Shown: positions 1-57,864 of the stretch, piece after piece
Position numbering within the stretch: the first letter of the stretch is position 1
Layout: the number at the start of each line of letters is the position of its first letter
Origin: Lytechinus pictus
Lineage: Eukaryota
Length of the DNA stretch: 64,000 nt
NCBI RefSeq assembly: GCF_037042905.1
Contig: NC_087251.1
Span: 36,272,001 to 36,336,000 of the forward strand
Direction of reading: 5' to 3'
Notes under the pieces: generated by a model
Databases searched by the model: none
Told to the model about the DNA's origin: nothing
The model's input: only the letters and a program-made list of their open reading frames with translations
Program-made: the position numbers and the translations under genes

Positions 1-1170
1 AATAATATACATATTCAATAAGTGATAAAAATATAAATTAACATGCATGTCAAATCAAAATTATGATAGCAATTCAAAATTCACAGAGTTTAAGCAATAT
101 GTTTTCTCCTCAAATATGCATGTCCATTTTGCGTCACACCGTAACCATGTTTATGAATATTCATATCTCATTAATTCAGTGGATCAAAATAACAAATGTT
201 ATCATTTTGAAAAGTGGGTTACAGCAACTACTGTCAGGTACCATTTCTTGGCAATAACTATTCAAATATGGGTGATATCTTTGTTTGAATGCAAAAAAGT
301 TGTTTCTGAATGTCACTCCGTAACCGTGGAACTGCCCTGGATCATTGAATTAATGGAGATAGATGACTAGATAGATAAATATATGATTCAATGATTTTTT
401 TTATAAATCACCTTTTATTCATAGAAAAGGGAATCAAATACGTTAATGGGCCCAGGTTATCAGTTCTAGATGAACGTAATACAGGGCAACATAAGATGAA
501 TACAGTACGGTATACATAAACAAACTTAAAACAAGAGATACTAATTATTTACATATCAAACGCGTCAATTCATAACAAAATTCATAGTAAAGTGATGAGA
601 AGGGGGAAGGAGGGGATATGCTATCTCATGGTTTAACTTAAGTTGTTCTGATTTTAAAATGAGTTCATTGTACTAACATATTGGTATTACAAAAATATAT
701 AAATTATGCAATTATAAATATATGAACAGATAAAGTGTAAATTCACATAAGTAGGCCTAGATCTTGAATTTATATTTTATATATATATAAAAGGTGTTAT
801 TTTGTTCGGCGAAGTATATGATATATTGATTGAATAAATAATAATAGTTAGCTAGATGATGGTATTTAATTTAAGAAATGTATGCAAATTGTGCATAGAA
901 ATAAGACATTATTGAAGATAAGATGTCTGAAAAGCTCTTGTTTATCAAGAGACCAGTTGGGGGTCGAGTAGGTGTAGCCATTCCCCCCCCCCAATGTGTC
1001 CAAGCCTGATGGATTACAAGTACAATTTGTGCCGCTACTTGAGATCCCCTGGTTTAGCCTTTGTAATTTAAAATTGATTGTAGTAATTACTGGCATGGAG
1101 ATAGAAATAGACTTCATATTTCCTTGGAAATGGATTAATCTCAGAATATTTCTTTTCTATTCTTGCTTAG

Positions 1171-3454
1171 CTGAGGATGCACGAGAAGCAGCAGCACACA
1201 ATGTAGCAGGCGTGGTCGTATCCAATCATGGAGCTAGACAGCTTGATGGGGTTCCATCTACAGTAAGCTCAATGTATTTATGTTTACCACAATATTTGTA
1301 TAATTCCCAATGACATGAACTGTCAAAGGACATTGAATTACTCATCAAAATCCTTTGCCAGAATCACTCCCATTCACTGGAGCATATTTTTCTCCTCAAC
1401 TTCATTGAAATAAACAAGTGAAGATGCAACTGAAAAAAAGTCATTTGATAGATGAAACTGTCCTAATCTGTAAAATTATGTGTCATTCAGTTTATTTACA
1501 TGTTTTACCATGATAGCCAGTAGCAATTTCATGTATTTCATTCTTTTGATAAAAGAAACCCTTCCTGTTAGCTGCATGATTTTGAAATCAAAATCACCAA
1601 AAAATGTAGACCATTTTGTTGACAGTATTGATAATATTATTTGGAATACTTGTATTGACCTTTTGAATAGATTGATGCCTTGCCTGAGGTTGTTGATGCT
1701 TTAAAAGGCACCGGGTTGGAGGTTTATCTGGATGGTGGCGTCAGGACTGGAACAGATGTTCTAAAGGCGATAGCCCTCGGAGCGAGGGCGGTATTCGTTG
1801 GTCGACCAGCATTGTGGGCTTTGGCATACAATGTAAGTGCAGTCATAAAATATTGACTTTCTAGTCAGGCAAAATTGCTAATGGCTAATACTAATGACTA
1901 GTTGCATTGACCAGTTATTGTTTTGAGGTGAGGATGGTTTATCAAATGGGCATTAGAATATATACCCACAATTGTTACCTCTGAAATTGTCCAAACTGTT
2001 TCAAAGGTATCTTGTGCATGTATAATTCATAATAATACTCTAAAAGCTGTGTAGTATTTATGAATAAACTACCTGAATTTTTATTTTTTTTACAGAGGAT
2101 TACAATACTACGCATAGTCTTTGAATAGGCCAGTCCAGGATTGGATTTTAAGTGTTTACATACCTTTCAAACAGAGGTCATTTTGACATTCCGAAAGCTT
2201 TCTTTAAGATTACTGAACATAGCAGCAAAGATTATTTGAATGGCTTAACATAGCTCAGAGAAAAAAAAAATGCTTAAGAATTTATATTTCATTTGACAAA
2301 ATTAGTCTAGTGCTCATTTGCTACCTTAGTCATAAATGAATACTGGATGTTAAGAGGGAAATTGAAATAAAAAATAAAACATTCTCAATGAGAAAAAATA
2401 ATTATTGATTCATCTTCTCTGAGTATCATGTAAGCTCAAAGTAAATGGTAGCATACCAATCATAGTGGGTAGGATTTCTATGGCTATCCATCTTTATTTA
2501 TTATCATTCAAAATAGATCCAATCTAAGAAAAAAAAAAACTAATGCTCTGAAAATATGCAATTGGGTCGCTGAGGGTACACACAATTAACAATTGAAATA
2601 TCTATCTGTCTTCTGCTCCTAATGGTTAATCTATTGTTTTCTTCCCACATTTATTCGCCAGGGTGAGGCAGGAGTGAAGAGAATGATTGAAATTTTAAGG
2701 GATGAGTTTAGTCTTGCCATGGCTCTTTCAGGTGAGACCTTCATGTGATAGTAGATTTTTTTGTATTAAATTTCCAGATATTATGATGAGCTGATGAATA
2801 GGGGTACCCTTCCTAACAAGGAACCCCCGATTATATGCTATCTCACAATTTTTTTTAATTTTCTTTTAAATTTAAATTCAACTTTTATCGTAAAAATATT
2901 CATTTTCCCACAACTACTGAATGTTGTCAGGGGCAATAGCCTTTAAAAAAATTACTATCACAGTTACTGTACCATCCATTGGCAATTACCATGGCAACAT
3001 AACCCAACAGCCAATGAATATATAGAATTCTATGGAAGTTACCGTTGGATGCCAAAGTTACCATGATATTAATGGTATACAAATAATGCACATAAGCGCG
3101 TGCGTGCAGGGCCAAATAATGAACGATGTGCAAGAAGAGCCAATGGATATACCGCAATTAGCTGAATATCATGTGATCCGATTTGGACCAATCAGATTAC
3201 AGAACATTCTTTGGAGTTGTATAATCACTTTTATGCAATACGTTCCAGATGGAATCAATCTCAGCAAAAGCAACTGATTTCACTGGAACTTTAAAAATCT
3301 ACATTATTAAGTGCAAATGATTTATATTTTACATACAATGATTGACCTATTTCCTTTTTTTTCTCATAATTTTCAAGGTGCAACAAATATCTCAGAAATC
3401 AACAGGAGATTAGTCCGAAGACAATCGCCATCTTATACCTCTTCAAAACTGTAA
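1171..3454 (+). CDS. HAO1: Peroxisomal 2-hydroxyacid oxidase (glycolate oxidase/HAO1-like), 3' part; 5' exons lie upstream of the window
   Basis: GT-AG exons 1171-1262 ([31 protein letters not shown], catalytic SNHGxRQLD), 1671-1832 ([33 protein letters not shown]-binding), 2662-2731 ([23 protein letters not shown]) and 3378-3454 ([25 protein letters not shown]). Phases are compatible and the protein ends in the PTS1 tripeptide SKL. Confidence 0.92.
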
Positions 3455-4371
3455 TAGAACTTATCTGGAACCCATAACAAAAAAGCTAACAATTGACCTT
3501 AGGGTTGATTTTGCCCATTGATCATGCGCAATGGTCATTGCAATCAAATGTAGAAATCAGCCCTACGGTCAGTTGTTATGCTCAATGTTACCGGGCACTG
3601 GTCATCGTATATTCCTCTATACAAATAATTAAAAACGAATGTATATTTTTTTACTGCCATTGTCAAATCAGTGATATACATTATAATGTAATTGTGTGCT
3701 GTAGTTTGAAAGATGTGTCTGTTGATGGGCATGTGACCATTTAGTGTTTGAATCATTCATTGTGCATGCATTTAATGTAAGGTTAAAAGTGAACGAGGAG
3801 CACTCCACCTGGGAGTTTAAAAAAAAAGTCAGTTCTGACAGGTTCATTGAAATCCTTCAGTTTGGTTGGCTGAAAAGCAGTGGTCTTTGACTGTTACTAT
3901 GGTAACTGCCAAAGAATGAAAACTTGTCAGTGCTGAGAAATGATGCCCATATCTCACTTTAATCAGCAAAGTGGGTTTTTAAATGAACTCATTTGACATA
4001 TCTCCACACCATTTACTTACTGCAATTTGAAGAGAATATATCTCTTAACTTATTCCAATGGAGTTGATGATAATATAAGTACCTTACAGTTTATTAAGAT
4101 TGTATGATGTGAGGCAGTTCAGAACTTTAGATTATTGAAAACATGTATATTTTTTTTCATGTAATATATCTTGGCCTCTACAACATTAATGTACAGGTAA
4201 ACTTGTGTGAGTAGATTTTCAATATGTCCAATATTCACCCATGGCAAAGCAGTTTTTTAGACCACATTATGCAAAACGAGTTTTATAGACCTCATCAAAT
4301 TTCTCCTCAGTCTATCAGATTTCCGTGATCCCAAAAGATTTGACTTCAGAAAAGTTTATTCATAAATATCA

Positions 4372-4790
4372 ATGACTGACTGGCTGACTTAGGTGCATAG
4401 GACGGTGTGTCTCCTACTGGTGATCCTTTTCCATTCAACTGGGCGTTGTGGCGTGCGCCTGTAATCCAAGCTATGTGGGGAAGTTACAAATTGATGCAGA
4501 GGTTCGAGGTTCGAGCCCTGGTCACGTATTTCGAATGGTGACGTTAAAGGTCGGTCCCAGACATAAATAATCATATCTGATTGATACACGTCTGACAAAA
4601 CTCAAATACACACACACACTTTTCCATTCAGTTCTACCCTGGGCTAGGTCTTCAGAATCCTGTGAGTCCCACATCACTTCTGACTTGGTCCCTCCATCTG
4701 GTATGGGGACGTCCTGGTGGTCTCCTCTTTTCAAAGTCATTCCTGTAGGCCTTGACAAATATACTTTTATCTTGGACATCTCGAAAAATC
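4372..4790 (-). mobile_element. 3' end of an RTE-like LINE, split by the SINE at 4438-4618
   Basis: Removing the SINE and one TSD rejoins the minus-strand frame as ...DSEDLAQGRTEWKRITSRRHTVLCT*, resembling the AQDRxxWR C-terminus of RTE-clade ORFs, followed by an (AGTC)n-like tail. Confidence 0.55.
4438..4618 (+). mobile_element. SINE with 7SL (SRP RNA Alu-domain)-like head, B-box and (CA)n tail
   Basis: Perfect 12-bp TSD cttttccattca at 4426-4437 and 4619-4630. Head is ACTGGGCGTTGTGGCGTGCGCCTGTAATCCAAGCTA, followed by a GGTTCGAGCCC B-box and a tail of (CA)n. Confidence 0.75.
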
Positions 4791-6427: not shown

Positions 6428-6654
6428 CCGGGCCTAGTGGCTCAGTGGTATATTGTCCGCCTCATGAACGCGAGGTCGTGGGTTTGATACCCGGCCAAGT
6501 CATACCAAAGACTTCCAAAATTGGGACCTTCTGCCTTTTTGCAAGGCGCTCAGTGTTAAGATTGGAGAAGGGTAATAATTCATGCAGTGCCCGCTGGTAG
6601 AGCAGTTTCCACACTGAAGTTGCTACCTTGAGGAAAATAAAGTGTTATTATTAA
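6428..6654 (+). mobile_element. tRNA-derived SINE
   Basis: A-box TGGCTCAGTGG and B-box-like GGTTTGATACC in a degenerate tRNA head, then a body (gtcataccaaagact...) and a TTA-repeat tail. The 3' part resembles 23870-23935. Confidence 0.65.
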
Positions 6655-14800: not shown

Positions 14801-17800
14801 TAGGTCTTTATACATAAATTTTGTGGGTAATTTTTTTTTTCATTTGTGGGGGCCGAAGTGCGTTTTTACATTTGTGGGTGTATCATTCTCCCGGGAGAGG
14901 AGTATATATTTATGTCAATTTTGGTTTATGTAATTGTGAAATAAAAAAAAAATGTTAACGACATTGCTACCAAACTAAAGTGAAAAAGAGGAAAATCATT
15001 AAGTTATACTTATCGACGTTGACGAATAGTCCTATAAGTGTATGGAAAAGGCAAGCAAGGCGATGTTGCGATATGCCCCCTATTATATCTAATACATCTC
15101 TATACTATGGTTATTAAGTCTGAAAATGTTTTAACGCGTACGAATATCATGTTAATTACCGGGAAATTTGATTCACAAGCTATTTTTTTCTCAAGGTTTT
15201 ATCCACAATACAACATTTAAGTTACATGATCATACAAAAATATAGTTATTCAACTATTCAAAGTATGTGTTTTGAATTGTATTTTTCATTTGAGATGTAG
15301 AAATTTTATTTAATTTGCTGTGAAAATAAATTAAAAACACAAAGCGTCGGTTATTGGAATAAATCAAATTTTTAGTTCAGATAGATATATGTATAAATCA
15401 CATTTTATAATTCAGATATTGACTAAAGAGTGACTTAACTCTATGATGAACGAGGGGTCGTAATATGGGAAAAGAGATGCTATGAAAAATGATTAATGAA
15501 ACGGGACCCAGAAGTGTTTTATAGCGGATCCTCTACCGATAGTGACTGTGTAATAGCTGATCATTACGTCCTATATTTTCATTAGTTTTCAACCAAGGCG
15601 CAAATTGTTCATCTCGGATGTTAATATTGAACTCCTGAAACAACATACTTTGGACCTTTTAGAAAATTAAACATCTTTGTTACAGCTGTTCATCCCATGG
15701 CGGAGGGGAGGGGTGTTCCAAAGAATTGTAAATATGCACAACCAAAGTAAGCAGAATCTATTGTGTGGACAGAAAAATATTAAGCAATTATACGTGATGC
15801 TTAATTAAATACACGATAATGATAATACATGTATTATATGTATATAATACATGGGAAGCGCGTTTTATGAAAGGACTTGTCGGTAAGAATGAAAGAAATG
15901 CACAAAATGGAAGGTGTGTAGATTATCATAAACATTCGGCATTGGTAAATTCTTATCTGTTTTCTTAGTTTTAAAGATATGGAATCGAATTCCCAAAATC
16001 CTTCAATATCCAAAGTCCTGATTTTCATTACTAATGGTAACCTGAGTAACCAAAGTTAGGTCTACATGCTGTGAAATCTTGTGAGAGAATGGAACAATAC
16101 ACGTACGAGGGACCGAAGCGATAATCTCCTGAAATTATGGCATTTTAAACACTCCAATGCTTCTTGTCGGATTATTCTTCATTCCCCCTTTCATAATTCA
16201 TATTTTTCATAATTGATATCTTTATATCCTGATCACAGAATTCGTTTACAATCGTATATTCTACGAGATGTGTCATCGAGGGATATATCCACCACCATCC
16301 TGGGACAGAAGGTACCCTTCCCCTTTGCCATCGCCCCTACAGCTATGCAGAAGATGGCCCACCCAGAAGGAGAAGTGGCCATGGCGAGAGGTAAAATCGG
16401 TGATGTTGCTAATATAGGGAGATTTCGCTTCCACGACACACAACCAATTCCAGAACACAATGAATATAATTAAAATTGCCCGTCAAATGACAATGATCAG
16501 CTACGAGGCTAGGAAGGTCTTTGTCGAAAACTGGTAACCCGGAACAGCAGTGTCATCCTAAGTCCCGGAGCTGACGAAAAATTGCAATCGTCTCCCGAGT
16601 CCAGGATGAAACTGCCGTGTTGATTCGTAAATTTTCGACAAAGACTTCTTGATTGTTCATTGTCATGAAGGGCATTTGACAAAAATTGTCTATGTTCTTG
16701 AATCCGTCGAAAGTCAACAGTCCCAAAATGATGCAGTCACACCAACGAAACAAACTCCTAAACGACCGATGGTATGTCGTGGGTAATAACGTATCAATTG
16801 GTCGAGCTGCGTGGACTCTTGAGTAGCTAGTTTTCACGGTGAATCACCGGTGTGACTGTCGCATGAGATTTGGAAAAAATAGAAATTTGAAGGTAGGGCC
16901 TACAAAGCCATCGGGTTTATGTTTAATCGGAATTAAAGAGAAAAGTACATGTATGATACAAAGGAAAAAAATGCATCTCTAATCAATTTCATGGCATCGT
17001 ACTATTTATATTTGGTGCACGTACCATTCCTTCCCCTGAAAACCCATTCTCCAAACATCATGATATGAAATCGGGAAAAGGTCGTAGGCCTTTCACCTCG
17101 ATCCATATGACATTTTCACGAAGGTGACCTTCAATGCTTCATCTGGTTGTGAGGTAAATAAAACTTCTCCAACTCTTTCATGAACCCACTGTCATACGTC
17201 TATGTACTATTTAGTGACTTTGTCACCAGATTTTTTGTCACTGCTAGACATCGTTCAGGTACTTCCGGAGAATTACTCTTCTGTAATTCCTGTTTTTAAA
17301 ACCTTGCTATAGCCGCCACAGCCATGGGAACCGGCATGGTTTTGAGTGCTTGGACAACGTGTACAATAGAGGAAGTAGCAGAAGCATCAGGTGATGGACT
17401 GCGCTGGTTCCACGTGCACATCTTCAGGGACAGGTCAATTACGAGGAAGATCATTGAACGGGCGGAGAGGGCGGGCTACAAGGCTATCTTCGTTTCTGGT
17501 GACACACCTGTCCTGGGAAGGAGGCTTCGAGCGTTGAGGAGTGAATTCGCGTTACCATCCAAATTCAGGTACAAACTACTACATTGAGATCTTTCTATTT
17601 TAGATCAGAGTTTGATTACTGGGTGATAATACCTAGATTACTCATTGTAGGCCTATCAGGTACGGTTAGTTTAATGTTTCTTCTTTTCTTAGTTGCTGTT
17701 AAATCGCAGAAGGGTAGTCTAGATATTTGTAGCAACTAAATAGTCACATTACGGGATGTTGTAATTCTCTTTTAAAAAATCCCTTTTAATGTCAATTACT

Positions 17801-20800
17801 TAACTAATAATGTTCTGTGGCTTAGTCAATATAATAACGCAGATATTTGCAATAAGTTTTAGCTAAATTCTAAGGGTGGTGTAATTCTTTTCATTAACTC
17901 GGATCCAAAAGGCGAATTAGCCTTATATTCCAAGTATATTTACTCTAAGTTTGACTCGATTCCTGGCAGATTACAGAGCTTTCCAACGCAGTTGGAGATT
18001 GAGGATGGGGCAGATAATGACTCCTTCCCGCAATACGTGGACACCCAAATCGATGATGCCGTTAGCTGGGACGACATAGAGTGGGTCAGAAGCATCTCGT
18101 CACTGCCAATTGTCGTTAAAGGCATTCTTACAGGTACACTGTAATATATCTTCAACTTTTCAGAGGATATGTAGGTGTGTTAAAGCACGGACATACAGAG
18201 CAGTAGGTCCAATGACGGAACGAACGTCTCGATAGAACTGTGTTTAACTTTAACATAATCAAGTATCACTGCGCATCCTGCCTGAGTTTCTTGTCACATG
18301 TCTAAGATCAAATGTCATTTATGTTCAATGAACTTAGAATTTTATTTTCATGTGAATTACGTTTTTTTTTAATAGGCCTAATCATCAATCTTCGTTGTTT
18401 CCAAAGTCAGCACTGCTGCTATATCGAATCGCGTAATTCAGGCGAGACTGAGACTGTCATAGGTGTTCCACTTTTTATCTGGCTCCCAAAGTCAGGAAGG
18501 GTACCGTTCTGAAGTCTTGAGTCGCTTTTAATACTATACAGAAGATCTTCTTTTTTTAATGAATGGTACACTCGGTTGTAATTCATTGTTATTGTAGACC
18601 TCAATCGCCTTGAGATTATACGATTCAAATCGAAATATAGGCCTACCATTATTCGATATTAACTTTGAATTATTATTTTTTCTTTAGCTGCTGATGCCCG
18701 AGAAGCAGTATCGCGTGGTGTAGCGGGTATATGCGTCTCGAATCACGGAGGTAGACAATTAGATGGAGTTCCTGCATCGGTAATGTCACACCAAACCATG
18801 CCCAACTCCTTATTCTTCTCCCCCCCCCTCCCCACTACTTGTCTTTCTATGTCGTAACCAACTTCTTTTTCTCTCCTTTTCTTATATCTTTAAAAAAAAA
18901 ATTCTATTTATTTTTTAACACTCTCTTTTCTCCCCCCCCCCCCTCTCTCTCTGTCTCTCTTTCTCCCTTTTCATTGTTGGGATTACTTACATCCTGTGCA
19001 TTGCGACATGGGGGGGGGGGGGCAAAGTATTACTATAGGGGGCAAGTCGATAGGGGCGGGCGTCTTATCGGCTTGCCCCCTATAATAGCACCGTCCCTGC
19101 TTTGTGAGAAGTACCACGTACGGAAATAAAATAAAAGTTAGAAATCGAGTGAAACGAAGACTGCATGCGCTATAGGTTTCCTAAAGGGGCTGTTTCGAGA
19201 GAAATAACATCTTGCCAAATGCCAAATACAAATCATAAGTAACGGGACACAGTTTAGCTATAATTCTTTTTATAACCAAAACCCACTTTACAGTTAGCGT
19301 TCCTTAGGCCTAGAAGTAAATGATAACTGCATATGCGCTAGGTTTCCTAAAGGGGTGTTTCTAGAGAAATAACATCTTGCCAAATGCCAAATACAAATCA
19401 TAAGTAACGGGACACAGTTTTTATTCATCAAGACTTGTATTAATATCCACCTTTCCTGGACAATACAATCCTTACAAGGAAAAAAATATTTCCCCAAACA
19501 TCCAATCATTGGGCTATTCCTTTCTCTTACTTGTCTCTAAACTCTTCGCACTTTCAGATCGATGTCCTAGAGGAGGTTGTGGATGCTGTTCGAGGATCCA
19601 GTATGGAAGTATTCTTTGATGGCGGTATTCGATCCGGAAATGATATCCTCAAAGCTCTGGCACTAGGAGCCCGAGCTGCATTCATAGGTCGACCGGCTCT
19701 CTGGGCTCTTAATTATGATGTAAGTTGTTGTTCTTATTTCCGTAAGATAAAACTAAATCATAATCAATTCATTTAATTTAACATTTGCATTAAAAAACGA
19801 ATACATGTACATAAGATTGTAACAGCAAACATAAGTTCACACATGACAAGAATATAGAGAAATACAAATGTGTGCCATAGGCCTATCAAAGGTCTATCAA
19901 ATCATGGACAGTTGCATAATATTACAGATTAAAAGTACACAAATAAAGTAAAATTACGACTGGTAGACAGTGGTAGTATATTTTCATCTTGGTTGGTATG
20001 CAAATGAGGAGACTGATGACATCATCCACTCACTATTTCTTTTGTATTTTATTGTATGAAATATTCTAATTTTCTCCTCATTGTCAAGTAAAACAGTGAT
20101 TAATTCTTCCCTGAACATGTGGAATTAGCACTGTTTAATACTATATGATTCAGTCAAGTCAGTCCCTATGGTCGAATCTGTAAAAAATGAAATATTGTCT
20201 AATTCAAAAAAATTTCAGTGTTATGCTTGTTGGATTGATCTCTTTTTATTAAAATCAGTTTTTTGTTGGGGTGGACTTGTCCTTTAAAATCAAGTCCATT
20301 ACAACTTGGGCCCCATTTCGTAGACTAATACGATTATGGTGACTTTGATTGGGTGTTGAGTCATGTTACCTTGGTAGTTACCATAATGGAAAAGTTGCCA
20401 TAATATTATTAAACAGGTCCCCTTAAGTTGATTTGAATAAAAAGCATAAAAAAAACATATCAATTTTGTGTTGAAATAAAGTTGTGTGAGTGATATGTTA
20501 AACTTTCACTTGATTCCACATAAATGACACGCACAACACAGATGACCTTGCTAGGGGCCGCGGAACGGTTTTTGAAAGTGCGGGGGCTAAGCCGAAAATG
20601 TGTGCGTGTGTGTGTGTGTGTGTGGGGGGGTGATCATGCAAAAAATCATAATCATTTTCGTTTTTGTGCACGGTTTCGGGGGAGCCCCCGTTTCCGGGGC
20701 CCCGGATGATATGCAAGGAGAGAACAGATGGGACCACAAACTTGATATTTGTTTTGTATTTGGTTTTATGGATAACATTTTTCATATTTTTAAAATGAGC

Positions 20801-27824: not shown

Positions 27825-30800
27825 CTATATTATGGCTTTGTAAGATAATTGGAAGCCCCTAAACTGGATGGATTCATCGCTCTCGAAGGTCAACTTCATT
27901 CGGTTGGACCGGGATATGTAGGGGCCTAAATTAGTTCCAGATCCACAAAGTCTGAAATAAAGAAAGATGGATATAGTGGCAATAGCAGTGATGATGATTA
28001 AAGTGAAAATAACTATAACAACAATAATGAGAGTGATATAATAGTAAAAATAGTAATAGTACTAATGATGAGAATATTGATAATCATGATAATGGTGATG
28101 ATGATGTTGATGATAATGATAATACTAGTAATACTATACCACTACTTCTACTACTAATATAAAATCATTCTTAGTAATGATAAGAGTATAGGCCTAATAA
28201 TAATAATAATAATAATAACAATTATTATAATAATTATAATCTGAATAATAGAAATAGTAATAATCTTTATAATAATAATTTCAACAACAATAATAGCAAT
28301 GATAATGATATATGGTGACGATAACCATTGTTTAGCACAAGAGCAAAAGGTGTTTCCCATAAACTATGTCAGATTGCCATTCCATTAATAAGAAATCTCC
28401 CATGCAGTGATAACAACTTATGACAATTCAAAACTTCCTCATTTTTGTCTTACTTTACTTTATTTTTTCCTGTAATTTTGTCGGCTCCTTTTATATTCAG
28501 AACGATTTGCCTGATAGACATATTTACCGTATTGGGTCAAACCCACTTTCGATGATTAAGACGTCGTAGCGGCAATTGTAACTTGACTCAATCTGCATAT
28601 CGTGGATAAATACATATATCCGCTGGCCTTCTTGGGTTTCCAAATTGTACACATTTCTCCTCAACGATGGGTAAGGATTCGGGTAGTTCGGTGATTGAAT
28701 TGTAGTCATAGGTGCTGACAGAATGACAAAAGTAAAAAAAAAAAAATGTGACTAATAAACCTAAGCCTATCAATGCAGTAGTATTTTTTTTACTTTTTGT
28801 TTCCGTGTATAGCCAGTTGTATGTCGATGTGTTTAGCTTGCTCGGACAAGAAGGCAATTTGTGGATCTTTTGCGATCAATAGGCCCTATTTCATAAATGA
28901 TTTGAACGTATTGTGAGACAATACAACTATCACAATTATTTTTACTATTTGATGCATGAACGTTGAGTAAACTCTAATAAAATATTCTTCGGGGGCATTT
29001 TTAGTACATTTTCTTACATTGTAAAACATGCATTATTGAAATAGACGGTGAACGTAAGTATTTTGAGCTAAATTATGCAAAGTCTTACAAAAATAGTTAT
29101 GAGGAAAACATGTCAAAATTTAGCTTGTTGAATATAAAAATTTAACAATTCTACTATCATTTGCAACAACCACATTTATATCGTTCAACGCACAAACCAT
29201 GGGGGTGGGATGGAGGCCGGAGGGTGGGTATACTGTTCCAATATATCCTACAAGTGATAAAAAAGTATTCATTCCTCGATCCAATACCTTAAACAAAAAA
29301 ATTTATTGATTTTTTTCTACTCTAAATAATGCCTCTAATTCTCATTACAGATGTAAAAATTATACGCTCTTTCCCGATTTTGGCAATTTTAGAGCCATTT
29401 ACATTGTACAGTATTCAGTAACATGTACATGTAAAGATTCATTATTTTTGTTCCCAAGGAAAGAATCTGTTTTAAAAAAATGTGAATGAGGTTTTATGAT
29501 TATAGGTTTTTTTTATTTGGATGGATTTGGCATTAACAATACACCTGTCTTTAAAAGGTCAATATACGACCAAGAAACTTGGCATACCTTCAGTTGTGGT
29601 TGTCACAACAGGTGCTTGTGTCGGTGCCGCAGTAGTTACGACCGGTGCTGCGGTTGGTGCCGCGGTAGTTACGACCGGTGCTGCGGTTGGCACCGCGGTA
29701 GTTACGACCGGTGCTGCGGTTGGCGCCGCGGTAGTTACGACCGGTGCTTCGGTTGGCGCCGCGGTAGTTACGACCGGTGCTTCGGTTGGTGCAATGGTTG
29801 TCACAACTGGTGCTTCGGTTGGTGCTGCGGTAGTTACGGCCAGTGCTTCGGAGGTTGTAAGTGGTTTATCAATGGTGAAGTGAGCTTTGAATCCTCTTCC
29901 AGTAAAAGATTCGTCGGAGGAGAACCATATCATCATATCATCCGTCGCAGTTATCGGGCTTTGTACAGAATTTCCACAATACTTTACACCACCGTATCGA
30001 AGGTCATCAGTGTTAACCTGGACGTAGTCCCAGCATTTGCCGTTGCTTTGACTTTCCAAGTCAAAATCATCAAACCACAGTGTTATCGTAGATCCAGGTT
30101 GGCCCTTTGAAAGAAGAAGCAGGGATAGTTTACAATACAAATATCATTAGACCAATATAAAATACTGCTTCTTTTATATTCTTTAAGACACGCAATGGCA
30201 CATGCACTTTTCATTTTGATCCGTTTACTAAGCTCATTATACGTTTTTGTCGAGTCCGCTTTTTTTTTAAATTCCACTTCTTCTTTTCCATAATATCTTA
30301 TGGTATTCTATTGCTTTCGATTCATATTTCACTTTTAATGCTATCATCACACTCTGTTATTTCCTGTTGCTTTCAGCTTTGTGCAATTGCTTCATTTTAA
30401 CTCGTGTAATATAATGGATATAGTAAAATAACTTGAAGGCCATCAGTTGGGTACCGAAAGATTGTAAGAAAGTGTGATTTGGCGTAATCTTGTATGCTAA
30501 AAATTGAATGTTATGTAAAAAATAAAATCATAGATAAAACAAGTGGAGCGTCTCTGGCAGTCTCACCTGCATCACGCGATTCACAAAAAACACCATTCAT
30601 ATATGATACAATACTACGTTCATTGATATTTGACCTTGATCATGTGACCTAAAACTTGTCAGTGATACTTGATTACCACTGTATCCACTTTTTATACACT
30701 ATATCTATAAATTTTGAAAGTTATGACAGCAATCTAATAATTACCTCCGAAATGGCCACAGTTCATTGACCTTAAATGACCCTTGACTTTGGTCATGTTA

Positions 30801-33073
30801 CCTGAAACTCGCATTAAATGTTCAGTGATATACTTGATTACACTTATGTTCAAGTTTTATGAACTAGATCCATAGACTTTCGGAGTTATGATGGTTATTC
30901 AACAATTCCCCCAAACATGGCCAAAGTTCATCGACCTTTGAACTCGGTCATGTGACTTGAAACTCGCACAGAATGTTCAGTAATACTTGATTACTCTTAT
31001 GTCCAAGTTTTATGAACTAGACCAATACACTTACAGAGTTATGATGGTAATTCAACAAATACCCCAACATTGCCAAAGTTCATTGACCTTAAATGAACTT
31101 CGACCTAGGTCATGTGACCTGAAATTTGCACAGGATATTCAGTGATACTTGATTACTTTTACATCCAAGTTTTATGAATCAGATTCATAAACTTTCAAAT
31201 TTATAGTTATTCAACATATACCCCCATCATGGCCAAAGTTCATTGACCTTTGACCTTAGTCATTTTACCTGAAACTCGCACAGGATGTTCAATGATACTT
31301 GATTACTCTTGTGTCCAAGTTTTATGAACTAGACCAATACACTTACAGAGTTATGATGGCAATAAAACAACTTGGACAAAGGTCATTGATCCTAAATGAC
31401 ATTTGACCTTGGTCATGTGACTTGAAACTCAAGCAGGATGTTCAATAATACTTGATTACCCTTATGGCCAAGTTTCATGAACTAGGTCCAATGTAATTTA
31501 TGCATAAGTTATGCTGTCATTTCAAAAACTTAATCTTCGGTTAAGATTTGATGTTGAAAAGCGGCGCCTATAGACTCTCTCTGCTATGCAGGCGGGTGTT
31601 TCATAAAGCTGTTCGTAAGATACGAATGAATTTACGCACGACTGGTGATCCTTTCTTGTGCTAAATGATATTCCTGTATAATTAATTTATGACCTAAGAA
31701 TATGTTCCAGTCGTGCGTAAAGTTGTGCGTAACTTTACGAACAGCTTTATGAAACACCCACCAGCTGAGACAAAAACGAGAATAACTCTCAAATAATGAA
31801 AGGAAAAGACACAATCTTCGTCAGTGCCAATGGTGCTACAAAATTAAAGCGAATTTAAAACCCGTTTCTGTTCCGATTAACCATTAATGAAAGGAAAAGA
31901 CACAATCTTCGTCAGTGCCAATGGTGCTACAAAATTAAAGAGAATTTAAAACCCGGTTCTGTTCCGATTAACCAATTTTCGACAAAGACCTCCCAGTTGT
32001 TCTTTGTCATTTGACGGACAATTTCAATACATAAAATGTGTTCTAAAATTCGTTCTGCGTGGCGGTGTGGATATATACTCGCTGATAATAAAGTTACATT
32101 GCACAAAAGCTAGGCGTATGAATTGAACTTACCTGAATATAAATCATGCAGTAAGAGTTAATGAGGTACTGTCCCGATTCGTAGTTAGGGGACGTAATCA
32201 CCCCCGATGCCTCAGTTCTTGTGATCTCGGTCACTTGAAGAGAAAGACAGGGAACGTATATGAATCACACCCATCCGAAAGACGGCATTGGCATCAATCT
32301 TTGTTACGTTTGTTGTTGGTTTGACATTATTTTTCTGATTCATTTTCAGGAAATCTTATACATTTATGATAGATCAAACAAGGGAGTCTCGTGAAGCACC
32401 TTTTCAAGTGATTTCCATTGACGATGAGATGTAATGAATCCAAAACGACAAAATAGTGAAAGTCGCCGGTAGGCCTCTATTATCATGAAATGCTCCCCAC
32501 CTCTCGATGTATCCTAACCACATATGGATTGAATCCGTATACTACTCTTTTTGATTTTGTCACCCGTTCTGGTCTTACTACCATCCGTTTCCAACCTGCT
32601 AATAATGATTATCGTAACTGTAAATTTTGTACGTAGAAATTTGTATGTTTCATTGCTTATATATCTGTATTATAATACGAAAAAAGGAGTAAATGTTGGA
32701 AATGGAAATAAGTGATTAAAAAAAATGGATATAGCAATAAGCGCTCTTTTGAGGCCTTTGTAAAAACTTAAAAGTACTCCAAAAGGTCAAGGAAGCATAG
32801 AGATCCACACTTTTTTCTTGGGTTTAGACCAACTCGTCCCCGCCAAAAAATTAGGTTCCCAATCGTATAACCTAACCCTAACCTAAACCTAGCCCTAACC
32901 CTTTTACTAGTATTATTTTCTTGTATTGTGTAACGCGCTTGACAATTTTTTCGTCCATGTTGGCTTTGTGTTCAAGTTCAAGTTTAAGTTTTAAAGAACA
33001 GACAGACATCAATCTAATGCACTTCTTAAAGTCATTTCTATTAAAACATAATGCAAAGTAATATAAATCAGAT

Positions 33074-33112
<39 letters not shown>

Positions 33113-36100
33113 TACCAGTCAAAAGTTTGGGTACACCAGTAATCAGAACTGATTTTTAACAAACATTTACAATTTATTCATTTATACTCTTCAAACACAG
33201 TGACAATTTAGTATCAAAATAAAGGGTAATTATCAGACTTCACATTGACTTTATTTTGAAGGTGAACAATCGTTTAAGAAAGCACTCAGGCGTGTCCAAA
33301 GAGAGATGAGACCAGACATAGAGTAAAAGCACAGAACCTTGTAAACAAAAAAAATGCTATTTCTGTTTCTGCAATATCTGACTTTCTTGACAAGTTCCAA
33401 TGATACATCTTTCTTAAATCTTTGATTCCTCATGAAGCCACCTCTGGCTACTATGATGACATGGAAAACACGTGGTATTCAGTTGAGTAGTTTCTTGAGG
33501 TCTGGTCTAATCTCGTTTTCAATTACCACAATTGTTTTCTCTTTTATTACTTTGTATTCACAGAAAAAAATATGCTTAACTTCAGGATCAGTTTGAATGG
33601 TATATTTGAATTATTGAAGATAAAATGTAAGAAGAAATTTTTTTTTGAAATATAAAAATCCTCAATTATTTCACCACTAGGGTACCTTAGTTTGCTTCAG
33701 AAGTGATGTTTGTTGTTTACTGATCAATTAATATTCAAAGATTATTCACTAAAAACCAATAAAATATTATGAAACGCACAGAGTCAACTCTAAAAACACA
33801 AAATGACAAACATCCTCATTTGACTTAAATAAACAGTTTGAGAGAGAGGGGTCTCTGGACACGCCTGAGTGCTTTCTGAAACGATATTTCATCTACAAAA
33901 TGAAACCAGTTTGAAGCAATAATTATCCTTTAATTTGATACTAAGTTGTCACTGTGTTTGAAGAGCATAAGTGAATGAATTGTAAAAAAAAATCAGTTAT
34001 AATTACAGGTGTACCCAAACTTTTGACTGGTACTGGATAATATATATATATATAGATATATATTTATTTATTTATTCATTTATGTATTTATTTATTTATT
34101 TATGAGCACTCACCGACTTTATCGACATTAGAGCTCTCTGTGCAGAGAGATCCTGTCCAATCAGGGGGACATTGACACGTGCATGTTTTGTCCACAAAGC
34201 CTCCATTTGCGCAGTTAAGAAGTGGACTAGGACATCTCGAATTGCAGTTGTATATGTAATTCGCAAGTTTGACATCGTAGAAACTGAGCTCCGACCTTTG
34301 GCCGATGTACTGCATGTCGAAAGGTCGTTTCGTCAGCAAAGTCGGCACAGCGTCATCGATGGCGAATCCCTGCATACCCAAGATTGAACAGTTATCCAAT
34401 AAGTCGACAACTCATAAATTGATCAAACCATAATTATAGATACATGTATATACACTGCAAAACACCTGTGTTGATTTAAAACCAGCCCGGTATCTATATC
34501 GGAAAACACCGGAGAAGCGTTGAAACAACACCAGTTAAGAATCAAACCGATATTGGTTTATAACACTAAGCGGTGTTGCTTAAATGCCATATTAGCACTG
34601 GAGGGGCACATCATTGTTCACAAACAATACAGTGCCCCTCCAATCATTGTCTCCTCCGGTTCACGGTCCGCCAATGGGTGTTTACTTGTTTCAACACCTC
34701 TCTGGTGTGGTCCGATATAGATACCTGGGGCCGATTGCACGAAAGGGTCTTTCCAAGGACAGTCTTTCGTGTCGCCCATCTTTGATGATGCGCTGTATGC
34801 GGGATATTTCTGAAATGTATGATAAACAAATAAAATTTGTTAGCTAGCATTTAAATCAATTCGTATACAATTTCATGATATATCACATCATTTTATAAAC
34901 AAAGATTTTGTTTACTTTAACAGATGAATAAAATATGTTTGCAGGTAATTTATTTGAAATGCGTTTCACATGGCGCATCATAATAAATGGGCGACATGAA
35001 AGACGGCTCCTGCAAAGACCCTTTCGTGCAATCGGCCCTAGACTGGTATTACACCGGCGTTTTTGCAGTGTAGGCTTAATCATTTCATTTCGTTGGGCTT
35101 CATTACACCGGAATAATTGAATATCCGAACAATGTAAACATTGCTCAAATTATTATAGGCGTCTTTACTTAGGTGCATGTGGCACAATTTCATTTGCTTG
35201 GGCGTCTTTACTTGGGTGTACGTGGAAACCTATAAATTGATCAGACTATATAGGCTCATTCCTTTCATTTGTTTGAGCATCCATACTTGGTGTAAGTGGA
35301 ATTTGAGCATTCTTACTTGGGTGTAAGCGGAAACCTTTACATTATTAATCATCAATCGTATCATTTGGTTTACATCCTTGCATAAGATGTAGCAGAAATT
35401 GCCAGCAATAAAAACAAATCTGATTTTTGTTTACATATACGATACAAACGATAAATAAATCGATCCTTAGCATACCAAATTCTCCTTTTAATTTAATACC
35501 CCCTCTGTTCTTTATTAAAAAAATAATTGTACTAAAATTTATTTCGGTCATACCACACCTTTATTGCTAAAGGCAGCATTGAATATTTGCAAATTAAGTC
35601 CGGACTCGAATACACTATACATAGGCGGATCCAGGTGGGGGCCCGAGGGGCCCGGGTCCACCCTATTGGCGGAGCAAAAAAAGAAAAAAAAGGGAAAGAA
35701 AGAAAAAAGGAAGGAAAAGAAAAGAGAAAAAGAAGAGGAGGAAGACGAGTGAATAAAATAAGATGAGAGGAAGACTTGGAAAAAAAATATTTCATGTCAC
35801 TATATAAAATTTTTCGCTCGCGCTTCGCGCTCGCATTGCCTGTTAAGTGATTTACATATCTTGTTCAACATGGAGCTTAAACATCAAGTTTGGAAGTCAA
35901 TATACAAAACATATTTCTCCTCGGAAATCGAACTTTCATTAATTTGTGTGATTTGCAAATTGATTTTTAAAAAGTGCTCTGTAAAAATGTCAGTTTATTC
36001 CATATTATTCCATAAAGTTTTAAAAATATCCCTTTTCAGGTCTGATTGTCAAAACGTATCAGCTAGCGCTGCCATGCTTGCATTTTGATTGGTGGGTTAT

Positions 36101-39100
36101 GTATGTCTCAATATTGATTATATAACAAACTACTTAAAATCCCCTTTTCATGACAGTTTATCAAAAATTTCGGCTCGCGATTTGCGCTCGCATTAATGGT
36201 TAAAAATATATCAACTGATTACTGATGCATCCTATTCATAATAAAACAAGTGGAATGCCTCTGGCCGTCTCACCTGCATCACGCGATTCAATATAGCAGC
36301 AGTGCTGATTTTGAAAACTACTATAACTCGCACAAGATGTTCAGTGATACTTGGTTACTCGTATTTCCACGTTTTATGAATTAGACCAATACACTTATAG
36401 AGATATGATGGCAATTCAACAAATACCCCCAACGTGGCCAAAGTTCTTTGACCTTACATGACCTTTGACCTTGATCATGTGACCTGAAACTCGCACAGGA
36501 TGTTCAGTGATACTTGATTACTCTTATGTCCAAGTTTTATGAACTAGACCAACACACTTTCAAATTTATGGCTGTAATTCAACAAATACCCCAATTTGGC
36601 CAAAGTTCATTGACCCTAAATGACCTTTGACCTTGATCATGTGACCTGAAACTTGCACAGGATGTTCAGTAATACTTGATTACTATTATGTCCAAGTTTC
36701 ATTAATCAGATCCATAAACTTTCAAAGTTATGATGGTAATTCAACAGATACCCCCAATTCGGCCAAAGTTCATTGACCCTAAATGACCTTTGACCTTGGT
36801 CATGTGTCGTGAAACTCATGCAGGATGTTCAGTGATACTTGATTAACCTTATGTATAAGTTTCATGAACTAGGTCCATATATTTTCTAATTTATGATGAC
36901 ATTTCAAAAACTTAACCTTAGGTTTAGATTTTGATGTTGATTCCCCCAACATGGTCTAAGTTCATTGACCCTAAATGACCTTTGACCTTGGTCATGTGAC
37001 ATGAAACTCAGGCAGGATGTTCAGTAATACTTGATTAACCTTATGGCCAAGTTTCATGAACTAGGTCCATATACTTTCTAAGTTATGCTGTCATTTCAAA
37101 AACTTAACCTCAGGTTAAGATTTGGTGTTGACGCCGCCGCCGCCGTCGCCGCCGCCGTCGCCGTCGGAAAAGCGGCGCCTATAGTCTCACTCTGCTATGC
37201 AGGTGAGACAAAAAAGTACTTGAAATGTACAGTGTTCAGGACATAATATCATCAGATTCTGCGCCCTCATTATGCATTAATAAATAAGATATCAATTTAA
37301 TAATTAAATTGTCCCTTTTGTTTAATCTCGCGCTTAGCAAGATGAATAGGAAGATATATAGTCATCATATTCATATAATGACATGTCCTAAGGATGTCAC
37401 GGTCCTATGTCTCAAACTCAAAGTGATAATGAAAAATATCAGCTCTTTATCAAGTGCGATTTATATCCACCTTACAATTTTCCTACAGTGTTTGAAATAT
37501 GAAGCTGAAATTGACCCCCCTTTTCAGATCGGAATATCAAATTTTTTAATGATAAAAGATGTATTTAGAATGTCTAGATTCTAGGTCTAAATCTGAAACA
37601 CGCGCGCACATGTTCATTCAGTTATCCAGTTTCAGATCACAATATCAAAAATGTTCTGCTCGCCCTTTGTGCTCGAATTATTAATGTAGGAATATTCCCC
37701 CTTTCTCATCCCTTTCATGATTTACAAAACATGAATAGAGTGTCCTGTTCTAGGTCTAAATCTCGAATTTTTCCGCTTGCGCTTCGTGCTCGCAATATTT
37801 GATTGTTGAAATATGTAACGTCTTCATGGCTAAGTGCAAGCAGTCCTTAAAAGGCACTTTTCGATCAGTTCAAAAACGTATACAAACATTTTCTGCTCGC
37901 GCTTTGCGCTCGCATTATTAATGTAGGAAGATCCCTTCTTACTCATTCTTTTCATGATTTACAAAACATAAATAGAGTGTCCTGTTGTAGGTCTAAAACT
38001 ATAATTTTTCCGCTCGCGCTTCGCGCTCGCATCAATTGTTTAGTTATATTGCTATCCTGTTCATGATTACAGAAATTGATTAAAATTTTCCATTCTTTAT
38101 GTAGAAATTTCAAAATTTTTCAGCTCGCGCTTCGCGCTTGCATTATTTGATTGTTAAAATATGCAACGTCTTCATGGCTAAATGCAAGAAGCTTTAAAGT
38201 GATTGGTTAACATTGGTTTGACTTTTAAAAAATCTGAGCTAGAAGGTTACACTTGTCACCTGTGTGTGTGATATGTTACAAAAATGAAGCCCAGAAAAAT
38301 TACGTTCGAAAATAATTATTTAGTGCTTCAAAAATTGAAATATAAAGTGACCGAAAACACCATCTTAATTTCATCCCATACACTTATGTGTACTATTTAG
38401 GCGTCTATAAGACGCCTTTTTACAAAATCGGGGTTTGTCTTGTAGTTTTAGCTTTTCATTCTCAATAATGGTTGTTTTCAGGGTTTATTAGTTCTAATAC
38501 ATGCACTTGTACACATGTTTCATCTTGGTTTGAGAATTTTTTAAATCGGCTGCTCACAAATTTAAACAGTACCTTTAACAGGTAGGCCTACCTTTCCGAT
38601 CAGTTCAAAACGTGTATCAAAAATTTCTGTTCGCGTTTGTAGTAATTATTGCCGGCACATCTTTTTTTTTCAGAATGTTCAAACTTTAGGAAAAAATACA
38701 TACAATTTATAAAAAAAATTGCTCGGGCTTCGCGCTCGCATTATGAAATAAGGATTATGATATTATATATTTATGTTGATTTAAAGAATACAGCTAAGAA
38801 GTGACTTATAGGACTACCCCCTTCATAGAAACAAACAAAAAATCATCTTCGAGCGGCCGATCGGGGACAATATGGCTGAAAAAAATTCTGGACCCCCCCC
38901 TATTGACGAAGGCTGGATCCGCCCCTGCTATAATATGTAATATTGCATAATTTTGATGTTGGTTTACTCACATGGGATCCGTAATGCATGACGGACGTGA
39001 CATCATATTCCACTACATCGCTACTCATAACTTCGTCGAGAGTATACTTGTCAAAGTTGTGTTTCTGTGAAGTTTGGATGTTGCTCCATAAGACATCGAC

Positions 39101-42100
39101 GTAGTCATCGCGATCGGGTCTTGACTGTTCATGTTGGAATCCCATCGCATGTCCGATCTCATGGGCGATGGTTCCAAGCTGAAAAGGAAGTTTGAAAATA
39201 TTATTTAAATAAATTATTACGTCTGTAATGATTACCCTTGCAAAATATTATTACGTCTTTAATGATCACCCCTGTCCATCCATGTCCACTAAGCTCAGAA
39301 ATGCACCCTAAAAATCTAATCATACGTGCAACTCTTAATTGCCATAATTGCTAAGCGAAGTGGCGCAAACAAGAAAATCCTCACATTCTTATACCCTCTT
39401 AAAATGGCATGACGCAGTGTGAACTGCTACAACATTGCGGCGTAGCAACAACTGTTAGTTACCTTTATTGCCCCTCTTTTTCATTTGACGGTGTTCCCGC
39501 CACGACTTTGAAATAAAACCCGGGAGGCATCCACGTATGTATGGATATGTGCGGCCCTTAAGACCTAGTCTGCAGGCACAGACCCTGATTGGAACTTTGA
39601 TCAACAAATGTGCCTCCATGCAAAGATTAGCACATACAAAACTTGCTGTTCCAATAGCGAGAGGGCCTTCAGTACACAAGGCATGAGTAGGCTGCAATTC
39701 AGACCCTTTACTCGAGTGAAGGGTTTGCCCAGCAGACTACTTACTTAAGACCTCCTTTTCACGTCTTGCCATGCAGCCGTTCTAAAGTTTTGACCCCTTT
39801 TCACAGATCAACCCGTTATCCCCCTTTCCTTCAGTATGCAGTTGAAATCTCTCGATTTCTCGTTTCATTGCTTATTTTGTAAGCCCCAAAACATAACCCA
39901 TTCCTATGCGTTACATTTCCGATGCAAGCACCAAATATGCTTTGCTCTGCTCTAAACAAAAACGCGCGTAAAAGTTTCATGTCCCTTTGTACACATCATG
40001 ATGTATAGTCGGGTAGATATGATCAAATTTATTGCATGACCGTCAAGTTGGGTATATATGCAATTTCTTTGCTGAAAGTTGTAGTGTAGGGTGTCTACTT
40101 CAAGAATCCGACGGGTGCCACTTGAGCACCCTTGGGCATTTTTTAAATTGACGTCATAGGCCACGCCCACTTTTTAAATACCTCTTAAATATGACTTTCA
40201 TATTTTACGAAATAAACATGTCATGTTTGGTATCAAATTAAAGCTAATGAAAAATCAAATGCAAATATATGGATCACTGGGCATTTAAATTACACGTATG
40301 TTAGTTAAATGTCATTTAAGGTCATAAAAGGTCAAATTGCATTGCAAATGTAAGTAATACATATAAAGCGAAAAATATCATGTTTTAGATACAAATAAGT
40401 TAGGAATTGTGTGCATTTTGTGCTGATAGTTAATTTGAGGGTGCGAATATTAAGAATCCGATGGATGCGACCTTGGTATCCTGAGGAAGTTTGTACTTTT
40501 CTGACGTCATAAACCACACAAACTTTCTTACATTCCTCTGAATTATTACTTTTCTATTGAGCGGAATAAACATATCATGTGTGATATCATATAAGTACAG
40601 ATGCAAAATCAAATCCACATATCTGAATCACAAGGCATTTAGAACGCACTCAGGGCAATTAAAGGTCATTTAAGGTCATGAAAGGTCAAATTAGGTCACA
40701 AATTTAAGCAATGCATCATATAATGCGGACTATCTCAAGAATGGAATACAAACAAGTTGGGTATCAGTTTATGTTAAGGATGTGTATATTAAGAATCTGA
40801 CAGGGACTACTTTGGTAACCTTGGGGCAACGTCATTTTCTGACGTCATAAAAAACACCATCCTTTTCACATAGGTCAACTTCTTGATTAATTAATCTGAT
40901 CTAGTGTATGGAATAAACATATCATGTTTGGTATCGAATTAAAGTCTATGGAAAATGGAATGTACATTTATACAAAAATAAAACACATTGTGTCACAAAC
41001 AAGTACGAGTAGGCCTCATGATATTGATGGCACATTGTCAAATCCCATAACTCTAGAATTTGGACTCCCTCAGGGGTCAATAGTCGGACCCATAGGCTAC
41101 TCAATATATACTCTTCCAGTTGGTGATATCATCCGAAATCACTGTATCAATTATCATTTTTATGCTGACGACATACAATTATACGTTTCTTTTGATCCGA
41201 AGACTCCTGGAGCTCTCAATAATGCACTGGTTAAACTCCAGAATTGTATATCAGATATAAGGCAGTGGATGATAATGAATAAGCTAAAATTAAATGACAA
41301 AAAAAATGAATTTTTTGTTGCGGCCTCTACTTATAACTTGCGCAATCTTCCAAATGTTCAACTTGATGTTGATGGTACACTTATTAGACCATCAGAAAAA
41401 ATACGAAACCTTGGTGTCATATTTGATTCCCGCATGTCAATGTCGTACCATATCTCTCATATCTGTAGCACAGTCACTTTTTATTTAAGGAACATTTCTA
41501 GAATCAGAAGGTTCATTGACCAGTCTGCCTGTCACAATGCTGTTCGTTCATTGGTTCTGTCTCGTATCGATTATTGCAATGGGCTCCTTTCTACAATTCC
41601 CTCTAATCAATTAATTCGTATTCAACGACTACAAAATTGGGCAGCACGATTAATTTTACAGGTTTCCCGAGATCATCCTTCCCAACCACTCTTTAATTCT
41701 CTTCACTGGCTTCCTTTTAAACAGAGAATTACGTTCAAATTACTCTTGATTGTCTACAAAACACTGAATAAACAGGCTCCACAGTATTTAAGTAACTGCT
41801 TGAATCTGTATACACCAACTAGAGCACTTAGGTCGGCCAGTGATCACCTTCGCCTCACATATTCATTAACTCGTACATTAGCTGGTGACAGAACTTTTAC
41901 GGTGTCGGCTTCAAAATCCTGGAACGACCTGCCACTAATAATTAGACAGTCTCCAACATTAGCAATTTTCAAAAAGTCATTAAAAACTCATATTTTTCGT
42001 ACTTTGTAGTTTGTAAAATATTACATTTAATTAATTCATTGTAAGCGCTTTGGGCCTAATGGGAAAAACGCAGTACAAATAATAAGTAATAATAATAATA

Positions 42101-54694: not shown

Positions 54695-54991
54695 CAGTGG
54701 CGTACCTAGGATTTTCCACAGGGGGGGGGGGCAAAACCGTCCGCCAAAAAATTGAACAAGCGAAAAAAAAAAAAAAAAAAAGTCTTCAATCACAAATAAA
54801 AGATTGTACCAGAGAAAAAATTTGACAAGCAAAAAAAAAAAAAAAAAAAAAGGTCTTCAAGCTCGTCAGGGGGGGGGGCACAATAAAGGTCTTCAAGCTC
54901 GTCAGGGGGGGGGGCAAAAAAGGTCTTTCAAGCTCGTCAGGGGGGCAGGGATATGTCCATTGCATGGGTTGTGGCTCGTAGGTACGCTAGT
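54695..54991. mobile_element. hAT-like MITE (7127-7463 family) at the left edge of the tRNA array
   Basis: cagtggcgtacctaggattttccacaggggg...gtaggtacgctag, colinear with 7127-7463. Confidence 0.85.
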
Positions 54992-56158: not shown

Positions 56159-56168
56159 AAAAAAAAAA
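56159..56168 (-). terminator. RNA polymerase III terminator (oligo-T) of tRNA-Thr; repeated at 59899-59908 and 63643-63652
   Basis: A10 run on the + strand, i.e. T10 just 3' of the tRNA on the - strand. Confidence 0.8.
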
Positions 56169-56175
56169 GAAGAGT

Positions 56176-56248
56176 AGGCATTGCCAGGATTTGAACCTGG
56201 GATCTCCTGTTTACTAGACAGGCGCTTTAACCGCTAAGCCACAACGCC
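56176..56248 (-). tRNA. tRNA-Thr (anticodon AGT), copy 1
   Basis: Reverse complement GGCGTTGTGGCTTAGCGGTTAAAGCGCCTGTCTAGTAAACAGGAGATCCCAGGTTCAAATCCTGGCAATGCCT folds as a complete cloverleaf: acceptor GGCGTTG/CAATGCC, anticodon arm CCTGT-CTAGTAA-ACAGG, T arm CCAGG-TTCAAAT-CCTGG. A T10 Pol III terminator lies 7 nt downstream. Confidence 0.96.
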
Positions 56249-57820: not shown

Positions 57821-57864
57821 CATAGAGATATATTACTAGTTTATTATTAGTATATATCTCTATG
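57821..57864. mobile_element. 44-bp micro-MITE (hAT-like); repeated at 61563-61606
   Basis: TIR catagagatatat / atatatctctatg with perfect 8-bp TSD agtgttac (57813-57820 and 57865-57872). Confidence 0.8.

Follow-up and report, generated by a model that had tools for sequence, protein, structure and literature searches.

The 64,000-nt stretch of sea-urchin DNA analysed here (the window) contains, at positions 4438–4618, a full-length SINE copy of 181 bp, the sole copy within the window, whose first 47 bases are, on sequence comparison, a copy of bases 1–47 of the host's own 7SL RNA, closest to the paralog at locus L037. The best explanation overall is a retroposon of the SINE1 kind with an independent origin in sea urchins, to which we assign a probability of roughly 0.85, and its identity as a 7SL-headed, non-autonomous retroposon spread by a LINE is highly probable. 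The first-pass annotation had proposed an independently evolved, chimeric SINE family with a 7SL head, and the host-7SL head, the uniform chimeric structure and the distinct flanks of the copies support that proposal. Judged from its copies across the genome, the family is young and has recently spread to ~1,500 sites.

Anatomy of the element and its surroundings

The insert with its perfect 12-bp target-site duplication, (CA)n end, B box and Deu-like motif was found just as first annotated (Table 1); the duplicated 12-mer occurs twice in the whole window. The copy differs from the majority sequence of the family (as in locus L002) at 3 of 170 positions and has one broken pair in the tail stem; its terminal AC repeat corresponds to repeats of 6–36 bases in other copies. 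The T4 run in the right duplication could terminate a Pol III transcript. Folding of the whole element was no better than that of shuffled sequences (z = −0.16).

Table 1. Features of the SINE copy and its flanks, in window coordinates
Feature	Position	Strand	Basis
Left target-site duplication, 12 bp	4426–4437	.	Identity to 4619–4630
7SL-derived head, complete Alu 5′ domain	4438–4484	+	Rfam Metazoa_SRP match; host 7SL alignment; pairings
Structural parts of the head: closing helix 1–3/45–47, helix 3, UGUA U-turn, helix 4, GGC/GCU loop-loop pair			
A-box position, inside the head	~4442–4451	+	Placed after PMC7245038
Linker and tRNA-type T-arm/B box (element bases 48–88)	4485–4525	+	
7-bp duplication of the B-box start, subfamily marker	4501–4507	+	
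B box	4508–4518	+	Motif
First ~33 bases of Deu domain (element bases 89–121)	4526–4558	+	Alignment to host locus L127
LINE-related 3′ tail, A/C-rich end	4558–4607	+	Homology to 3′ ends of two RNase H-bearing LINE families
Two-helix stem-loop in the tail (element bases 121–157)	4558–4594	+	
(AC)n terminal repeat	4608–4618	+	Sequence
Right target-site duplication, 12 bp	4619–4630	.	Identity to 4426–4437

The copy lies ~1 kb past the apparent last exon (exon end inferred) of an FMN-dependent dehydrogenase gene, and two such paralogs (hydroxyacid oxidase-like) stand in tandem at 978–3455 and 17300–19776. Elsewhere in the window, a tRNA-headed SINE at 6428–6650 resembles, by eye, MetaSINE heads; the minus strand at 29559–47939 carries exons of an astacin protease with a CUB domain and a Thr-rich repeat, a layout that we take to be like that of sea-urchin BP10/SpAN; a 369-aa reverse-transcriptase fragment of a non-LTR element lies at 40900–42009; and positions 54832–64000 are occupied by a ~3.7-kb tandem repeat, with units 95–98% alike, each bearing, on its minus strand, one gene for tRNA-Thr(AGT).

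Sources of the head and body

An Rfam covariance search matched Metazoa_SRP to positions 4438–4529 with 30 bits (E = 4e-6). The gathering score of 70 was not reached because the 5′ end alone matches, the alignment being good over the 5′ domain only. Other Rfam matches (mir-1268, snoRNAs) were dismissed as side effects or chance. The host genome contains seven full 7SL genes above the Rfam cut-off. Element bases 1–47 agree with the one at L037 in 41 of 47 alignment columns, including 30 contiguous identities, and with the one at L031 in 40 of 47; local alignment scores of the head against host 7SL (63 and 60) were equalled by none of 500 shuffles. The same head scored 22 and 18 against the tRNA-Thr of the window and the tRNA-type SINE head, with a common run of 11 bases in the case of tRNA-Thr. 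The pair closing the domain is U3–A45 in both the SINE and L037 and C–G in the other six 7SL paralogs, which indicates an L037-like source. All six differences between the head and L037 fall within the 11-base loop 2; the chance of such clustering is ~4e-5 if changes are spread evenly and 2e-4 with the A box left out, in a calculation that wrongly treats gaps as independent. The claim of a 7SL-derived head therefore stands, given the SRP covariance score and an alignment to host 7SL far better than to tRNA.

Likeness to 7SL stops after element base 47. The 3′ Alu-domain strand (7SL ~267–299) is absent: when bases 49–170 were set against the final 50 bases of host 7SL, a score as high came from 494 of 500 shuffles. 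Bases 48–90 showed no significant match to host 7SL 45–90 (130–356 of 1000 shuffles as high), and derivation of the B box from 7SL 76–86 finds weak positional likeness that is not significant by the same count. Under the SINEBase definition, identity to tRNA, 5S or 7SL should reach 60% across a minimum of 60 nt (PMC3531059); in the alignment to host 7SL, 45 of the first 60 columns agree, with homology beyond chance confined to bases 1–47. The original label "Alu-like" thus fits the first 47 bases and fails beyond them, where a 3′ Alu-domain strand, a 7SL-derived B box and poly(A) are all missing.

The stretch comprising the linker and B box is modestly similar to tRNA-type 3′ halves, with 3–148 of 1000 shuffles scoring as high, and the family has short and long forms, without or with the 7-bp duplication of the B-box start, the more diverged copies being of the short form. 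The next stretch aligns to a host Deu-like SINE at L127 (score 37, reached by 0 of 500 shuffles). That SINE (L127:150–520), with a B box and a Deu-like domain, sits immediately behind the stop that closes an RNase H-bearing frame and includes a stretch that we assume to be CORE-like. Likeness between the two fades after ~33 bases, at the start of the LINE-type stem-loop, and no conserved domain of at least 70 bases, the DeuSINE criterion, was found; the Deu domain that the motif had suggested is present for its first ~33 bases and lacks the rest. By eye, this stretch also aligns to the beginning of the Deu alignment published with PMC7245038. Neither 41 body-motif places nor an nhmmer search of 80 loci and the window yielded a tRNA-headed parent sharing this body.

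The host 7SL genes have features of their own. Just downstream of the terminator, six of the seven carry a tRNA-type B-box motif (316–319 bases from the 7SL start in L031 and L033–L036, 340 in L032); in L031 it sits in a perfect 5-bp T-stem, and none is found in the inspected stretch of L037. The box may act as a downstream promoter element outside the gene. Three tandem 7SL genes on contig C10 have a SINE copy ~35 bases upstream (L031:1290–1466, L035:1294–1467 and L036:1315–1467), and paralogs L033 and L034 have an empty site there. Such an arrangement would hardly arise by chance when copies are spaced at one per 540 kb, and it suggests one insertion followed by duplication.

Copies across the genome

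The host assembly (812 Mb, 368 contigs) has a gene for bindin (236.7 bits), a protein (PF02084) that marks sea urchins. A DNA search of this assembly returned 1,872 candidates, 40 of which were scored and yielded 47 places at 91–100% identity. The tail motif, with at most 3 mismatches, had 1,510 genome-wide matches and the exact body motif 1,064, each with 0 in the control. The family thus numbers ~1,500 copies and is, in the terms by which SINEBase delimits SINEs (PMC3531059), shorter than 1 kb, interspersed and present in at least 100 copies.

A best-hit sample of 80 copies from 80 loci, one dropped for a missing tail, included 22 flagged as tandem and 58 single. Left flanks were distinct in 55 of the 58 single copies, which supplies the differently flanked insertions that the earlier annotation had called for. 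Exact duplications of at least 5 bp were found in 12 of 55 best-hit copies (swapped-flank control: mean 1.1, maximum 4) and of at least 7 bp in 6 of 55 (control 0.06), by a test that is blind to duplications hidden inside the CA tail. The 12-bp duplication of the window copy is unusual for the family, in which a minority of copies has a clear duplication.

A second sample addressed best-hit bias: 40 regions taken, mostly by position, from the list of body motifs on contig C1 gave 41 motif places. Thirty-four have the 7SL head, one has part of it and six are 5′-truncated into unrelated DNA; no alternative head recurred among the 41. The head in 34 of 41 places and the uniform junctions across copies mark a chimera, not a plain 7SL retrocopy. 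Duplications of at least 5 bp were present in 6 of 34 position-ordered copies (control 1.1), and tandem arrangement in 2 of 36, far above expectation for a density of one copy per ~540 kb. Over 38 places, copies had a median of 97.5% identity to the majority sequence; L085, L086 and L100 are clearly older, yet headed. Pre-insertion states were also recovered: the monomers L040 and L015 match the dimers L039 and L014 in their flanks, and the 7SL paralog L034 lacks the SINE copy found upstream of paralog L035. The 5′-truncated copies, variable short duplications and head-to-tail insertions are the marks of the family's spread.

Head-to-tail dimers to tetramers occur at L008, L013, L014, L016, L030 and L039–L044, and at L030 one SINE copy is inserted in the head of another. 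Copies L039–L044 and L112 have common flanks on several contigs and were therefore carried inside another repeat. At least half of the element's sampled words were present in 19 of 24 listed sequencing runs under three organism labels, a seawater run and three small-share rows in that listing being given no evidential weight. The element is therefore no assembly artefact, and the family may occur in more than one species.

Three other accounts of the origin of the element were weighed against these data. The 11-base run in common with the tRNA-Thr genes of the window could speak for a head derived from tRNA that came to resemble 7SL by convergence; this is ruled out by the SRP covariance match and by the alignment to L037, with its 30 contiguous identities and 41 of 47 matching columns, and we give it next to no probability. 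Equally implausible is contamination with human Alu, or a single 7SL pseudogene that was carried inside another repeat: some copies did travel within another repeat, as the common flanks of L039–L044 and L112 indicate, but the head follows host 7SL alleles, the ~1,500 copies differ in their flanks, and at least half of the element's words recur in the 19 runs. A less remote, though improbable, account derives all of the front ~90 bases from a 7SL locus, either because 7SL 48–90 diverged in place or because a deletion drew in the downstream B box. It draws on the B-box motif lying 316–340 bases from the start of six of the seven host 7SL genes and on the long subfamily, which scores 27–29 against two such flanks, exceeding tRNA-type targets. 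Against it, bases 48–90 resemble 7SL at shuffle level, the flank match is not significant once the B box is set aside (90–1000 of 1000 shuffles), and the short form is the one found in the more diverged copies. Loss of significance with the box excluded led us to reject the downstream flank of 7SL genes as the source of the B-box stretch. In the chimeric origin that we prefer, a 7SL 5′ end would have replaced the front of a tRNA-headed Deu-type SINE, via template switch or recombination.

Probable LINE partner, possible SRP9/14 binding and known 7SL-derived SINEs

Ten 3′ stretches of RNase H-bearing elements were compared with the SINE tail. The 3′ end of LINE L123 was identical to it in 38 of 54 columns, and this best-of-ten score was reached by 7 of 500 shuffles; it was the one end matched within the stretch compared, that of L128 being recognised later via L104 and the hairpin pattern. 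Eight of the ten ends gave no match, in stretches that may stop short of the true 3′ ends. At L104:330–600, a second LINE 3′ end lies directly upstream of a 5′-truncated SINE copy and is joined to it. When two SINE and two LINE tails were aligned, 47 of 48 cells were paired and four pairs had changed on both sides, as expected of compensatory change, a count from four sequences in two groups on a structure drawn from those same sequences. The hairpin motif has 205 matches (control 0), with LINE-type tails making up 87 of the first 100 listed, and 5 of 18 LINE-type motif places on C1–C2 follow a scored RNase H hit at a distance of at most 1.5 kb.

The two LINE families carry RNase H in frames that stay open for 1,269 and 1,252 aa. 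Their RNase H and C-terminal Cys/His layout, in place of a reverse-transcriptase tree, is our ground for presuming that they belong to the I/Nimb clade (I-superfamily). They are likely mobilisers of the SINE, and an I-superfamily LINE is probably its partner; LINE tails end in CAA or CAAC repeats and SINE tails in CA, so that the exact partner may be a relative outside the sample. Such a LINE protein would recognise the 3′ stem-loop and copy the RNA by target-primed reverse transcription, the RNA presumably being transcribed by Pol III from the 7SL A box and the tRNA-type B box.

The helix, U-turn and loop-loop complementarity claimed for the head are all present, and their pairings were checked across copies. 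Every pairing of the Alu 5′ domain is kept, with differences confined to loop 2, and among 91 heads, all have an intact helix 4, 83 an intact helix 3 and 88 the GGC/GCU pairs; the U-turn count of 91/91 is circular, the U-turn having served as the anchor. The four commonest head variants (48 of 91) vary only inside loop 2. The features retained are those described as SRP9/14 determinants in PMC12265939 and PMC8137916, namely the GGC–GCU pseudoknot, the G4–U23/G24 triad and the UGU U-turn, and a 46-nt 5′ domain is reported to bind SRP9/14 and to give ~86% of Alu's retrotransposition when assayed in HeLa-HA cells (PMC12199147). An SRP14 gene was found in the host genome; a search for SRP9 came back empty, which, given its short exons, is no evidence of absence. 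Among copies, the substitution rate of the head (0.041) is not lower than that of the rest (0.02–0.053), as expected of neutral decay after insertion.

On these features, the odds slightly favour a head that binds SRP9/14 in a way that aids mobility. It would fold as the Alu 5′ pseudoknot, bind SRP9/14 and deliver the RNA to ribosomes engaged in synthesis of the LINE protein, in the way suggested for Alu. The fuller reading, which we hold tentatively and at a little under even odds, is that invertebrates here provide their first 7SL-derived SINE, a minimal Alu made by nature, in which selection kept exactly the 47-nt SRP9/14-binding 5′ domain; SRP9/14 would bring the RNA to ribosomes translating an I-superfamily LINE, a route that would have arisen anew beyond the vertebrates, with no 3′ Alu strand, poly(A) or L1 involved. 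Its main rival, possible but with a probability well below one half, accepts the same element and treats the 7SL head as a promoter piece (A box, start site) or an RNA stabiliser with no role for SRP9/14, since a LINE that reads a stem-loop needs no ribosome targeting. The putative LINE recognition stem-loop in the tail agrees with this, as do the modest family size, head copies that change as fast as the rest of the element and the lack of the 3′ Alu strand, which every other SINE1 lineage retains. A mere promoter accounts less readily for a 7SL match that extends far past the A box and stops precisely where the 5′ domain does, or for fixed changes that spare the helices, the U-turn and the pseudoknot bases; moreover, the 5′ domain by itself suffices in human cells (PMC12199147).

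In PMC7245038, PMC10886601 and PMC13023118, 7SL-derived SINEs are reported from three vertebrate origins and no others: Euarchontoglires, hagfish and shrew mole. All of them retain both 7SL ends, whence the view that a complete Alu domain is required. The earlier annotation was right that the lineages are very few; its list of primates, rodents and their relatives, and hagfish has to be extended by the shrew mole (PMC13023118). An echinoderm origin with the 5′ domain only and a probable third kind of LINE partner tests the whole-Alu-domain view, and the 47-base urchin head mirrors the 2025 result that 46 nt suffice (PMC12199147). Because the source paralog and candidate LINEs with long frames reside in the same genome and the family is young, promoter and SRP9/14 functions are separable in this system.

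In the literature listings searched we found no invertebrate 7SL SINE, though Repbase, Repbase Reports, Dfam, the SINEBase sequences and supplements could carry the family under another label. Named sea-urchin SINEs are of Meta, Deu or CORE types in the accounts of PMC4824008, PMC4758252 and PMC3531059, and the bivalve SINEs described in PMC11481361 are tRNA-type. As judged from sequence, the urchin element is a SINE1 by its head and falls outside the Alu, Urop and Ebu1-1 families.

Among its closest counterparts in kind is SINE1-1_EBu (Ebu1-1) of the hagfish Eptatretus burgeri, as presented by Kojima 2020 (PMC7245038), which likewise joins an independent 7SL-derived head to older tRNA-type SINE parts, has a stringent LINE-derived tail and a microsatellite end, and is young, with 2,363 copies against ~1,500 in the urchin. 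Ebu1-1 combines 7SL 1–96 with the 3′ Alu strand and a 7SL B box, a bipartite RTE tail, (AAC)n and duplications of ~17 bp (PMC7245038), whereas the urchin element has 7SL 1–47 only, a B box of tRNA type, the start of a Deu domain, a stem-loop like those of the I-superfamily, (CA)n, duplications that are mostly short or hidden, and an invertebrate host. DeuSINEs, among them the sea-urchin SINE2-3_SP, also place the Deu start right after a tRNA-type B box, and 5S-headed DeuSINEs have a second small-RNA head fused before the tRNA-type head; the domain described for them spans 70–330 bases, compared with ~33 bases and a 7SL head in the urchin (PMC4824008, PMC4758252). With Alu, B1 and Tu of Euarchontoglires and Urop of the shrew mole, the element has in common a 5′ Alu domain with U-turn and loop-loop pseudoknot and internal A and B boxes; the ~183-nt central deletion, both 7SL ends, poly(A) and use of L1 described for those families (PMC13023118) have no equivalent in it. 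The engineered minimal Alus SA46/AY46 (Moldovan, Yin and Moran 2025; PMC12199147) match it in 7SL extent, at 46–47 nt, and are reported to have bound SRP9/14 and supported retrotransposition; they are artificial, CMV-driven, poly(A)-bearing and L1-mobilised, whereas the urchin SINE is a natural element with a LINE stem-loop tail. To judge from its parts, the head is of the kind that works like Alu and the end of the kind that works like those of stringent LINE-tailed SINEs.
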